The notes: generated by a model from the letters alone, not told the origin. 64,000 nucleotides of DNA from Methanobacteriota archaeon (GCA_030594205.1 JAUVFR010000001.1:156252-220251), one strand, 5' to 3'; numbered from the stretch's first letter, positions 11,776 to 14,703 are shown. Numbers and translations are program-made.

Positions 11776-12171
11776 CTAAGAGTCCACCAGGCTCGCGATC
11801 CGCTTCGGCGCCCCCCCGGCTCTCAGCTTAGCCACCGCCGCCTCTAGGATGGATATGAGCCTCTCTCGTTCGGATGGCCCTCGGCCCTCCATAGTCTGTC
11901 GCACCTGGCGAATCGAGGCAGGATCGGGGTCGACCGATTTCCGCGTGGTCCCGCCTCGGAGGAGCAGGAAGGCCACGAGGGCCAGGGCCACGCCGGCCGC
12001 GAGGAAGAAAAGGCTGAGTGCCGCCAGGCCTACCTGCAGCAGGAGAGCGAAGATGGCGTCCATGACCGCCCTTGGCGGTGCGAAGGCCAGGATTCGAACC
12101 TGGGGGAACCCCTTCGGGACTAGGCCCTGAATCCAGCGCCGTTGACAGAACTGGCACCCAAGATTCAGCAC
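11776..12171 (-). CDS. Small membrane protein or gene fragment whose middle part is paralogous to residues ~40-95 of the 8-TM protein at 13696..14703; possible pseudogene
   Basis: 131-aa ORF. Its segment FAPPRAVMDAIFALLLQVGLAALSLFFLAAGVALALVAFLLLRGGTTRKSV matches FAPPGAVIDALFDLLLTVGLAALNFAFLAAGVSLALMAFLLLRGGITRKSV of the 335-aa protein. The ORF reads through the tRNA-Leu-like fragment. Confidence 0.3.
   Translation of the reverse strand: MLNLGCQFCQRRWIQGLVPKGFPQVRILAFAPPRAVMDAIFALLLQVGLAALSLFFLAAGVALALVAFLLLRGGTTRKSVDPDPASIRQVRQTMEGRGPSERERLISILEAAVAKLRAGGAPKRIASLVDS
11930..12082. repeat. About 150-bp segment duplicated (about 80% identity) at 14406..14558, abutting a truncated tRNA-Leu-like fragment
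   Basis: Direct nucleotide comparison: gaccgatttccgcgtgGtcccgcctcggaggagcaggaaggcca... in both copies. The two copies diverge exactly where the tRNA-like sequence begins (about 12082). Confidence 0.6.
12079..12155 (-). tRNA. Truncated tRNA-Leu-like element: D-arm through 3' acceptor strand, with no matching 5' acceptor strand (pseudo-tRNA / att-site remnant)
   Basis: Minus-strand sequence GCCAGTTCTGTCAACGGCGCTGGATTCAGGGCCTAGTCCCGAAGGGGTTCCCCCAGGTTCGAATCCTGGCCTTCGCACC is about 88% identical to the 3' 60 nt of the intact tRNA-Leu(CAG) at 21434..21518, including the long variable arm and T-arm. No GCGAAGG 5' strand is present upstream and the anticodon stem has one mismatch. Confidence 0.5.
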
Positions 12172-12349
12172 ACAGAGCTTACAGATGACGGCAAGGCAAC
12201 ATTTGCACTGTTAGGTGGGCCTTCCGGGACTTTCGATGACCACGACTTGTCGCGTTATGGTTGGAGTCATGGGCCCCTCTTCCCTCGAGGAGGAAGTGTC
12301 AAAAGTCCTGGACGTCATCCAGGCGCAAAGGGGCTATGGGGCTGACAGA

Positions 12350-13174
12350 ATGAGGGGAGTGACGGGCATCGGAGGCGTCTTCTTCAAGTCGACGGATCCC
12401 GAGGAACTGGTGGCCTGGTACCAGGAGCACCTCGGGATCCAACTTCGGGAGGACGGGTCCGTCGACTTCGAATGGCGGGAGCGCAACGCGCCCCACGAGG
12501 TGGGCTACACTGTGTGGGCTCCTTTCCGGGAGGACACCACGTACTTCGATCCGAGCGAGAAGTCTTTCATGATCAACTTCCGCGTGGCCGATCTCGACTC
12601 CCTCCTGAGACAGCTCCAGGAGGAGGGCGTCGTGGTGGACGACCGGGTCGAGGATACCCCCCATGGTCGGTTCGGCTGGATCATGGACCCCGAGGGGAAC
12701 CGCGTGGAGCTGTGGGAGCCTGTCCCCAGGCCAGACAGCGCATCCCCGGCCTCCCTCCCCGGCGTCGTCGTCCCTGGTCGCGGGCTGGGGGCCGAGGTCA
12801 TGGCCGACCCGGAGCTACGGTCACGGCTGCGTCGCCTCTTCGGGTTCGACCCGGTCCCCGGGACCCTCAACGTGCTGCTCCTCGACCCCCTGCCGGAACC
12901 CCTTACTTCCTATGTGGGCTGGACGGATCTAGGCTTCGCGGAGGACGACCCTCAGGTCCCCGGTCGGCGCGGGCTCCGCTATGGCTCCGTTCTCATCGAG
13001 GGGAAGTATCAGGGAATCGCCTTCCAGGGTGATGAGCCCCGTTACCCTTCGAACCATATCGAGTTGATCAGCGACCGCCATCTGCGGGATACGCTGGGAC
13101 TCCGCAATCTCGACCGTATATGCTTCGAAATCTTGCCGACATCTGTAGATTCGGCCACCGAGCCCGACGACTGA
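12350..13174 (+). CDS. Fusion protein: N-terminal VOC/glyoxalase-like domain plus C-terminal archaeal CTP-dependent riboflavin kinase (RibK, DUF120/MJ0056-type) domain (ORF also open from 12215)
   Basis: N-domain MRGVTGIGGVFFKSTDPEELVAWYQEHLG...FGWIMDPEGNRVELWEP is paralogous to 8718..9104. C-domain LRRLFGFDPVPGTLNVLL...IEGKYQGIAFQ...RYPSNHIELISDRHLRDTLGLRNLDRICFEI matches the MJ0056 RibK motifs (PYEGTLNLKL; TYHSSEIIEIIAP). Confidence 0.7.
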   Translation: MRGVTGIGGVFFKSTDPEELVAWYQEHLGIQLREDGSVDFEWRERNAPHEVGYTVWAPFREDTTYFDPSEKSFMINFRVADLDSLLRQLQEEGVVVDDRVEDTPHGRFGWIMDPEGNRVELWEPVPRPDSASPASLPGVVVPGRGLGAEVMADPELRSRLRRLFGFDPVPGTLNVLLLDPLPEPLTSYVGWTDLGFAEDDPQVPGRRGLRYGSVLIEGKYQGIAFQGDEPRYPSNHIELISDRHLRDTLGLRNLDRICFEILPTSVDSATEPDD

Positions 13175-13695
13175 GACAGTCGTCGTCTCGGGCGTGCTGC
13201 CGGAGCGCGCCGAGCATGATTCCTCTCCGCTCCGGAAATACGTCACCGAGCTCCCACTCACGGCCGACTTCCAAGGCCTGCCACTGAAGCAGCCCATTGC
13301 CTAGGTCCTTCTGTTCGAGGCAGTTCACAACCGCTCCGTGCTCCCTCGTGATCTGGGTGGCCCAACTGCAAGGGAGATTGACCCGAACGGTGGCTTCGAT
13401 CACCGCGCTGCCAATGTTCCGCCTGTTGTTTCCACCTAGCGAGGGCCCAGGTCAGAAAGTTTCCGAGCCGAGGACGTGGACAGCGGGTTATCATGCTCAT
13501 GACCCTATTGATCACTCGGGCGATTCGTTCGCAGAACTCTCGCTCGACATTTCATAGTCGTCGCTCCCCACCTGGGTCCATCAGTCCAGCTTTCGGACGC
13601 ATCGATCGCCCGGACAAATGGGGTCTGGTCGGGACGGCTCAGACCGCCCCTGACACATCAGGAGATGCCGTTCGACAGTCTGCCTGACTTCATCG

Positions 13696-14703
13696 TCACG
13701 TTTCCATACGGGGTCCGGCATTCTCCAATCCTGAGGGCTTCGGCAAGGTCCGGCTTTCCGCTTTCACCGGCGACCTCAGCCCGAAGGTCGAGGCCGGGAG
13801 GATGAAGAGGATGAGGCCCAAGAGGGAGAGCTGAGCGAGGTAAGTGTTCTGGAACATCCTCCCCGCGATACCGATCAGGAGGAATCCGACACCCATCCAC
13901 CGTTGCGGCTTGTCATGAAGGAGGTCCGCCAGATCGTACGCGTAGACGCCCAGGGCCAGGGCGTAGATGGGCGCGGGCAGGAAGAGGGTAAAATATACGG
14001 TCCAGACCGCAGCCAGGGAGGCGAAGGCCGACTGGGAGGCCAGCACGAAGGCGATCGCAGGCAGGGCGGCAAGGGGGACGAACCACGGTCTCCACCGGCG
14101 TCCGGGAAGGAGCAGGAAGGGCGCGGTGACCGCGAGGATTTCCCCCACGCTGAAGATCTCAGTGGCATAGGGCAGAGGAACCCCCATGGCGAACACGCTC
14201 AGGCTGGCCTGGAAATAGTAGGTGGTGCCGAGGGCGGCCGCGATGGCACAAGTGGCGAGGAAGTCCCAGGAGCGCTTCCGGGGAAAGAGGAGTAGAAGGG
14301 GGACGACGACGGCCATGGAAAGGCCATGATAGAGCAAGGGCACGCTGGGATGGAGGAGGAGGGGGAGCAGGAGTCCGAGCGCGAGGAGGAACCAGATGAG
14401 GAGGGCGACCGATTTCCGCGTGATCCCGCCTCGGAGGAGCAGGAAGGCCATGAGTGCTAGGGAGACGCCGGCGGCGAGGAAGGCGAAGTTGAGCGCCGCC
14501 AGGCCTACCGTCAGCAGGAGATCGAAGAGTGCGTCGATGACCGCTCCGGGAGGCGCGAAGGCACCCCCACGCAGGAGGAGGCGAAGCAGGACGAATTCGA
14601 CGATGGAAGCGGCGGCGACGGAGATCAGGAGAATGCGCAGCCAGGGGACGACTGCTTCTCTAGCCTGCGACGCCCCCATGTTGCGTCTCCGTCCGGTTCG
14701 CAC
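13696..14703 (-). CDS. Polytopic (~8 TM) membrane protein of unknown function, last gene of the molybdoenzyme operon
   Basis: 335 aa, highly hydrophobic. Its start overlaps the TorD-like gene end by 44 nt, which suggests co-transcription. Three His residues lie in predicted membrane segments. Confidence 0.6.
   Translation of the reverse strand: MRTGRRRNMGASQAREAVVPWLRILLISVAAASIVEFVLLRLLLRGGAFAPPGAVIDALFDLLLTVGLAALNFAFLAAGVSLALMAFLLLRGGITRKSVALLIWFLLALGLLLPLLLHPSVPLLYHGLSMAVVVPLLLLFPRKRSWDFLATCAIAAALGTTYYFQASLSVFAMGVPLPYATEIFSVGEILAVTAPFLLLPGRRWRPWFVPLAALPAIAFVLASQSAFASLAAVWTVYFTLFLPAPIYALALGVYAYDLADLLHDKPQRWMGVGFLLIGIAGRMFQNTYLAQLSLLGLILFILPASTFGLRSPVKAESRTLPKPSGLENAGPRMET
14406..14558. repeat. 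Second copy of the ~150-bp duplicated segment (inside the 8-TM protein gene)
   Basis: See 11930..12082. Confidence 0.6.

Follow-up and report, generated by a model that had tools for sequence, protein, structure and literature searches.

A stretch of 64,000 nucleotides from a metagenome-assembled genome (MAG) listed as a Methanobacteriota archaeon (GCA_030594205.1, JAUVFR010000001.1:156252-220251), referred to below as the window, carries at positions 11,776 to 14,703 a truncated copy of a tRNA-Leu gene fused to a partial copy of a membrane-protein gene, both on the minus strand. The intact membrane-protein gene (13696..14679, minus strand) encodes a multi-pass protein of 327 amino acids (aa), designated 8TM, and is the fifth gene of a resident type II dimethyl sulfoxide (DMSO)-reductase-family (Nar/Nxr-like) operon recognised with Pfam and NCBIfam (14660..21047 from the alpha-subunit gene to the NarJ-like gene, minus strand). 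Thirteen homologues of the 8TM protein were found, and wherever the source names or records the organism they come from Thermoplasmata or Methanomassiliicoccales MAGs; hence the window is archaeal, and it appears to derive from a Thermoplasmata archaeon. Relatives are cited by working labels, the main ones being L001 (GCA_046759185.1), L003 (GCA_046759265.1), L012 (GCA_022848745.1), L024 (GCA_044343095.1) and the V3U17 MAG (GCA_036476285.1), whose type is represented by L013 and by a second assembly, L014, with the operon on contig L023.

The open reading frame (ORF) that spans the fusion is a chimera of four unrelated fragments and appears to be the relic of multi-fragment recombination and deletion. 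In its direction of reading, all on the minus strand, it is composed of a 5'-truncated tRNA-Leu pseudogene (A', 12085..12146), an in-frame copy of codons 40-91 of the 8TM gene in the 327-aa numbering (T', 11932..12087), about 17 codons (residues ~207-223) of an S-adenosylmethionine (SAM)-dependent methyltransferase gene (M', 11881..11931), and the last ~35 codons and stop of a conserved 147-aa hypothetical gene (U', 11776..11880). The 131-aa version of the frame starts at GTG 12171 and reads through the tRNA remnant too; a preliminary description of this DNA had regarded it as a probable relic, and its patchwork composition bears this out. The 95-aa version (11776..12063, minus strand; T', M' and U') starts at ATG 12063 and is annotated publicly, in a MAG nearly identical to the window, as hypothetical protein MCJ2531291.1.

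Each fragment could be traced to its source. The membrane-gene piece forms an ungapped direct repeat of 160 nt (11928-12087 against 14403-14562) with 84% identity and a blastn E of 8.6e-48, which places the duplication, first described as one of 150 bp, far beyond chance. At the protein level T' is ~79% identical to the resident 8TM protein over 52 residues, with 11 differences. T' shows 88% identity to the allele in L005. M' is recognised by the string DPDPASIRQ.RQ.MEGR, which alignment with the intact methyltransferases of L001, L003 and L005 and with the protein P0015 assigns to residues ~207-223, just after SAM-binding motif I. The C-terminus of the ORF (GRGPSERERLISILEAAVAKL...LVDS) is the C-terminus of the 147-aa gene, as seen in the translations of the L001 and L003 orthologues and by tblastn and blastn; in relatives this gene adjoins the Glyoxalase and HxlR genes. 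Much has been lost from each source, including the methyltransferase motif I (VGCGxG) and winged-helix domain, all of the 8TM protein except 52 of its 327 residues, and all of the 147-aa protein except its last ~35 residues. A homologue search with the ORF returned two proteins. One (P0014), annotated as a 'hypothetical protein' of 95 aa, has the same ATG as its start and is 98% identical. The other (P0015) is a 196-aa 'methyltransferase domain-containing protein' with the same 8TM piece followed by DPDPASIRQARQNMEGR and then by the whole C-terminal part of the methyltransferase.

Short identities mark the three joins, namely GGCC at A'|T', GTCG at T'|M' and CGAG at M'|U', the last of which fuses the methyltransferase to the 147-aa gene in frame, and the junctions look like microhomology-mediated deletions. 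The order and orientation of the four fragments are collinear with tRNA-Leu, 8TM, methyltransferase and 147-aa gene in L001 and L003. An 8-nt string common to the remnant and the resident 8TM gene (GCCTTCGC) was considered as the original crossover point and dropped, as the V3U17 type carries the native tRNA end.

The tRNA-like part is a copy of tRNA-Leu(CAG), whose intact and functional counterpart lies elsewhere in the window (21433..21518, minus strand). A' is ~90% identical to the tRNA-Leu genes of the window and of L001; over 12078-12146 the identity is ~90% to the intact gene and 89.9% to that of L001 (69 nt, E=2e-19), again well above chance. The copy covers the end of the D-loop, the anticodon arm, the variable arm and the T-arm, with a 2-nt indel and a longest exact run of 20 nt (CCCAGGTTCGAATCCTGGCC) ending in GGCC, and exact tRNA identity stops at ...CCTGGCC (12085). 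The preliminary description had read 77 nt here as the D-arm, anticodon arm, long variable arm, T-arm and 3' acceptor strand of a class II tRNA-Leu. The anticodon, variable and T-arms stand; the D-arm match (12147-12155) is weak, an extension of the remnant to 12155 being possible; the 3' acceptor strand has to be withdrawn, as CCTTCGCA, which resembles it, is membrane-gene sequence, and GGCCTTCGCACCGCC matches the L005 allele of the 8TM gene at 15 of 15 positions.

The absence of a 5' acceptor strand and a mismatch in the anticodon stem had also been reported, and both were seen. No 5' acceptor strand lies nearby, and neither a GCGAAGG nor a GCGGCGG partner occurs upstream; the stem mismatch is an A·C pair, the D-loop lacks GG, and two extra nucleotides precede the T-stem. 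ARAGORN made no call on A' by default, as had been expected, and, since the host is an archaeon, it was run with introns allowed too, again without a call; at lowered thresholds it returned only nonsensical intron-containing calls that reuse the T-arm. Rfam RF00005 gave no tRNA match over 11700-12500 even at E<=10, against 51 bits for the intact gene. A' is a dead tRNA remnant with no tRNA function, as originally proposed.

The intact tRNA-Leu(CAG) is called by ARAGORN and scores 51 bits with the Rfam tRNA model in a local search. It lies 386 bp upstream of the alpha-subunit gene and is orthologous to the tRNA-Leu of L001, with a conserved upstream flank. The two tRNA copies are in direct orientation, 9.35 kb apart, and bracket a discrete segment, so that the operon and its 8TM gene form a block between them. 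At its gathering threshold an Rfam search of the whole window missed the intact gene, which is a matter of filter sensitivity for class II archaeal tRNAs. L001 lacks a counterpart to the 305 bp between this tRNA and the alpha-subunit gene (21126-21430) and has four genes (Fer4, Glyoxalase, F420H2-quinone-reductase-like and GyrI-like) in their place; on their plus strand these 305 bp may code for a small hydrophobic peptide. Around the four extra L001 genes, a search for short attachment-site (att)-like repeats of the tRNA 3' end yielded only chance 10-12-mers.

The arrangement in relatives shows what the window has lost. In L001 and L003 the tRNA-Leu is followed by four small genes (L001), the operon, the 8TM gene, an HTH_10 regulator (L003 only), a SAM-methyltransferase of 354-359 aa, a RIO1 kinase, FdhD and Mo-oxidoreductase genes (L003 only), the 147-aa gene, and then Glyoxalase, HxlR, epimerase and adenine glycosylase genes. 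The window retains the operon and the end from Glyoxalase to glycosylase (9114-11709); the methyltransferase and RIO1 are gone, as is most of the 147-aa gene. The operon and 8TM gene occupy the syntenic site in L001 and L003, which are free of the remnant, and they occur in more distant relatives as well. Scans of genome and metagenome collections for the 8TM family reached relatives down to 40-55% identity; beyond two close MAGs these keep the operon and lack the downstream genes, and their contigs begin inside the operon and are uninformative on the position of the tRNA.

The scar itself is carried by other assemblies. L024 (8307 bp) corresponds to window positions 15192-6886 at 99.46% identity, gapless across the entire scar, and L012 to 12422-1776 at 99.4%. 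The V3U17 type (L013 and L014) carries the same tRNA remnant and 8TM piece, joined through an identical GTCG to the methyltransferase gene, whose 3' part is complete and after which RIO1, FdhD and Mo-oxidoreductase follow as in L003. Since two independent assemblies and a diverged homologous version possess it, the scar is not an assembly artefact. Four sequence variants of the 95-aa ORF are present in public assemblies; the tRNA/8TM junction pattern had 0 matches in a scan of JGI metagenomes.

The operon contig L023 is 96.15% identical to the window (dS 0.07-0.15), and the V3U17 scar region is 87-88% identical to it. As the A'-T'-M' core is found in both lineages, it predates their split; the M'|U' deletion, together with the replacement of the 3' part of the regulator by a VOC-DUF120 gene, belongs to the window lineage alone. 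Both lineages have an identical T'|M' junction, and the A'|T' junction differs by ~13 nt between them: the V3U17 type keeps the native tRNA 3' end with a CTCG trailer and joins the 8TM gene ~13 nt later. This difference suggests either independent deletions from a longer precursor or later gene conversion.

The allele represented by T' is not that of the resident gene. In a neighbour-joining analysis of 132 aligned nucleotides, the T' sequences of both lineages group with the 8TM alleles of L005 and L001 in 497 of 500 bootstraps, and with the resident 8TM gene in 2 of 500. The dN/dS of T' against its orthologues is 0.35-0.46, which indicates that most of its divergence accrued when it was part of a working gene. 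The grouping argues that two different 8TM alleles, and by implication two operon-bearing segments, once co-existed. Taken together with the collinearity of A'-T'-M'-U', this co-existence favours an eroded second copy of the locus.

We infer, with a probability a little short of even, that the locus is a non-functional scar that holds the eroded remains of a second copy of the segment running from tRNA-Leu through the operon, the 8TM gene and the methyltransferase to the 147-aa gene, which arose by recombination at the tRNA-Leu. In the ancestor of the window and V3U17 lineages, a block containing most of the tRNA-Leu, the operon and the 8TM gene would have been duplicated at the tRNA-Leu, with different allele types in the two copies. 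The likeliest route would be homologous recombination at the tRNA, either through single-crossover insertion of a circularised fragment or with DNA of a related lineage entering by homology-anchored illegitimate recombination. Either would leave one intact tRNA-Leu and one 5'-truncated copy in direct orientation, and such a direct repeat is the expected product of a single crossover at a tRNA gene. The redundant copy would then have been whittled down by deletions between 4-nt microhomologies: one from the tRNA 3' region to 8TM codon ~41, which removed the second operon; one from 8TM codon 91 to methyltransferase codon ~207; and, in the window lineage only, one from methyltransferase codon ~223 to codon ~112 of the 147-aa gene. 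Separately, the HTH_10 regulator would have been truncated and the VOC-DUF120 gene would have reached its place upstream of the remnant.

Two processes documented in bacteria (PMC3240628) are single-crossover integration of incoming linear DNA after it has circularised, and homology-facilitated illegitimate recombination. With a short conserved homology as anchor, for which the tRNA gene would stand here, integration would leave a direct duplication in which one copy is truncated, make illegitimate joins at microhomologies and introduce a divergent allele, much as in the window. The experimental demonstrations of these mechanisms are in bacteria only, whereas the process in the window is read from comparative sequence, in which neither a donor nor an intermediate with two full copies was observed.

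Several observations weigh against a duplication at the tRNA followed by erosion. No relative with a complete second operon copy was found among those examined, of which the informative ones have short contigs that break near the scar region. When the operon is compared with those of four relatives in sliding windows, no clear mosaic emerges, nor any clear lineage from which the resident operon could have come. The allele phylogeny is based on 132 nt, and T' has an intermediate or mosaic appearance. In the window and L014 the 5' boundary of the remnant is nearly the same although the DNA upstream of it differs, which sits a little uneasily with simple descent. The VOC-DUF120 gene, which in L001 is found downstream of the intact tRNA, is upstream of the remnant here, and a methyltransferase 5' fragment precedes the truncated regulator; both need extra events. 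Moreover, the cited mechanisms were shown in bacteria and not in Thermoplasmata.

A different origin, unlikely though deserving of serious thought, is the one-step repair of a break inside the methyltransferase gene by template switching or filler DNA, in which short stretches were copied through microhomology from the HTH_10, tRNA-Leu and 8TM genes before synthesis resumed in the methyltransferase, with no full second operon at any time. Fork stalling and template switching (FoSTeS) and microhomology-mediated break-induced replication (MMBIR) produce complex rearrangements of this kind with templated insertions. The truly duplicated pieces are indeed short (62-69 nt of tRNA and 156-160 nt of 8TM gene), they are flanked by two parts of one methyltransferase gene, a probable 5' fragment on one side and a mid-gene fragment on the other, and, as in such rearrangements, all pieces come from one 10-kb neighbourhood and are joined in direct orientation through 4-nt microhomologies. 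That 5' fragment is weakly supported (E ~0.005), however, and copying from neighbouring genes leaves the allele mismatch unexplained, since T' groups with the alleles of other lineages and not with the resident gene; the A'|T' junction, moreover, differs between lineages. The mismatch and the lineage-specific junction argue for stepwise erosion rather than a single event. The preliminary description had proposed integrase-mediated insertion or recombination, and of these recombination at or near the tRNA is likely. Site-specific integration, in which the 9.3-kb block between tRNA and remnant would be a present or former integrative island and the remnant a displaced att site, is not supported and is quite unlikely. 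The pairing of a complete with a partial tRNA copy in direct orientation, here at a distance of 9.35 kb, is the classical signature of elements integrated at archaeal tRNA genes, such as PYG1 of Pyrococcus yayanosii and the elements of 9-23 kb in Thermococcaceae, which are flanked by partial tRNA genes (PMC9897764); there, too, the partial copy is non-functional and can mislead annotation. The 5' boundary of the remnant, alike in two lineages despite different upstream DNA, also speaks for such integration. Unlike those elements, the window locus holds neither an integrase nor viral or integrative-conjugative cargo. No integrase gene was found between the tRNA copies or within ~10 kb below and 14 kb above, including 1776-12422 (from the L012 annotation) and the long ORFs scanned at ~24.1-35.8 kb. 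All genes of the interval have been assigned (the operon, 8TM, the regulator fragment and VOC-DUF120); its conserved operon, of respiratory type, occupies the same locus in remnant-free relatives and so is not accessory. Base composition is flat across the region with no anomaly in GC content. The repeats are diverged (84-90% identity, the tRNA ~90% with a longest exact run of 20 nt), in contrast to the near-identical cores of 40-50 bp in the archaeal elements, a divergence that could reflect the decay of an old att core. What follows the remnant, furthermore, is a fragment of the operon's own last gene instead of a normal tRNA flank, and the remnant is fused to fragments of three protein genes, again unlike those elements.

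It is barely credible that A' belongs to a working tRNA of non-canonical form (intron-containing, split or permuted) or that the locus as a whole results from mis-assembly of a metagenome. In favour, the window derives from a MAG and its host is an archaeon; archaea can have tRNA introns and split tRNAs, those of the Nanoarchaeum and Caldivirga type being examples, and the tRNA-like sequence of the window resembles them in missing one strand of its acceptor stem. In contrast to that class, the remnant has no partner half, no complementary 5' acceptor strand nearby, no sensible intron call from ARAGORN and no covariance-model match at E<=10; it bears disabling changes in its stems and D-loop (the A·C pair and the missing GG), and an intact isoacceptor, tRNA-Leu(CAG), is already present in the window. 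By these features it would not belong to the class of split or intron-containing tRNAs. Mis-assembly is excluded by the two independent assemblies at ~99.4-99.5% identity and by the diverged homologous version.

The 95-aa ORF is most likely an accidental in-frame fusion. A recently formed working gene, encoding a small membrane protein of two helices, maintained by selection and drawing its upstream region from the tRNA remnant, is a very unlikely alternative. The ATG and open frame are retained in two lineages that have diverged by ~12%, comparison with the V3U17 lineage over 61 codons gives an omega of 0.37 (Sd=9, Nd=9), the coding part is less diverged (10%) than the adjoining tRNA remnant (19%), and the fusion of the methyltransferase to the 147-aa gene is in frame in the window. 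These counts are tiny, however, and the dN of 0.072 exceeds that of neighbouring real genes (0.006-0.04); all four substitutions among close strains (4/4), G38E and A22V among them, are non-synonymous, the C-terminal halves are wholly different from one lineage to the other, and long spurious ORFs are common in a genome of 63% GC. The T-loop TTCGAAT precedes the ATG by ~30 nt, the position expected of a TATA element in archaea. The fuller proposal, of a newborn two-helix membrane-protein gene assembled from three protein genes, with a dead tRNA as its 5' flank and with frame and start kept through ~12% divergence between two Thermoplasmata lineages, is less probable still.

Other fragments lie between the resident 8TM gene and the remnant. 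A probable methyltransferase 5' fragment (13456..13551, minus strand; codons ~11-42) stands directly 3' of the 8TM gene, as the methyltransferase does in L001 and L005; the evidence is weak, with tblastn identities of 40-45% over 29-32 aa (E 0.004-0.007 in a 2.1-kb database) and a blastn match of 71% over 76 nt to L005. It is followed by a truncated HTH_10 (Bat/DmsR-type) regulator (13282..13442, minus strand), of which ~39 bp of upstream DNA and codons 1-40 only are left, 82.5% identical in aa and 82.6% in nt to the full-length 214-aa gene of L003. Between this and the tRNA remnant lies a VOC/glyoxalase gene fused to DUF120, a CTP-dependent riboflavin-kinase-like domain (12350..13174, plus strand; Pfam and NCBIfam). 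It shares 85.5% aa identity with the 174-aa Glyoxalase of L001, whose gene is located between tRNA-Leu and the alpha-subunit gene (1785-2455). DUF120 is complete in the window gene, and the L001 orthologue has only its start; protein similarity between the two ends at residue 138 and DNA homology continues. A VOC paralogue is found at 8718-9101. Synteny at the VOC-DUF120 gene is circularly permuted relative to L001, as the L001 coordinates met along the operon strand are 319-1130, 3605-10910, 1785-2455, 1062-1128, 10117-10277 and then 13804-14512; between the last two matches lies the 3' fragment of the 147-aa gene, detected at the protein level only. The unmatched junction stretches (12147-12273, 12950-13283, 13443-13766 and 21126-21430) contain no repeats and no matches resembling insertion sequences or miniature inverted-repeat transposable elements, the sole match being the weak methyltransferase 5' fragment. 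A segment of 1.24 kb (12490-13729), which spans the 8TM 3' end, the gene fragments and the VOC-DUF120 gene, holds 21-22 of the 45 differences between the window and L024 (~1.8% against ~0.3% elsewhere), and suggests relaxed constraint or local recombination.

The region just 3' of the 8TM gene differs among close lineages and has the look of a hot spot for indels. In L001 and L005 the next gene is the methyltransferase; L003 has an HTH_10 regulator inserted between the two. In L006 (2953-3161), ~210 bp after the 8TM gene, a 221-aa minus-strand gene stands at the RIO1 position of L005, with no methyltransferase. Contigs of many independent assemblies begin or end in the operon or scar, among them the start of L012 (window 12422), the end of L023 (14196), and the starts of L003, L009-L011 and L015-L022; this fits strain heterogeneity or multiple operon copies that break assemblies.

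The operon, which is 82-91% identical to those of L001 and L003, is composed on the minus strand of a Tat-type alpha subunit of the type II DMSO-reductase family (17493-21047), a beta subunit (16341-17489), an EB_dh/heme-b gamma subunit (15330-16331) and a NarJ-like chaperone (14660-15337), all assigned with Pfam and NCBIfam. The 8TM gene is always 3' of the NarJ-like gene and often overlaps it (in the window and in L001, L003, L005, L006, L009-L011 and L015-L022). Its protein matched no Pfam or NCBIfam family and is a candidate membrane anchor or quinol-interacting subunit. An AlphaFold2 model built on a 12-sequence alignment had a mean pLDDT (predicted local distance difference test) of 54.9, too poor for a fold search, and exact-protein look-ups of 8TM (two alternative starts), the beta subunit and P0001 gave no match.

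The scar is a fresh example of an ordinary kind, and nothing in it overturns current understanding. For annotation it calls for caution, as MCJ2531291.1 and the 196-aa MEE9164473.1 show that proteins listed as 'hypothetical' or 'methyltransferase' can be patchworks of gene fragments. It also documents stepwise erosion with one intermediate stage surviving in a sister lineage. There is a hint that two alleles of a Nar/Nxr-like operon were once adjacent at a tRNA-Leu in uncultured Thermoplasmata, which suggests that such operons may be exchanged between lineages via recombination at the tRNA, without a dedicated mobile element, and makes the locus a modest illustration of how operon alleles turn over at a tRNA gene.

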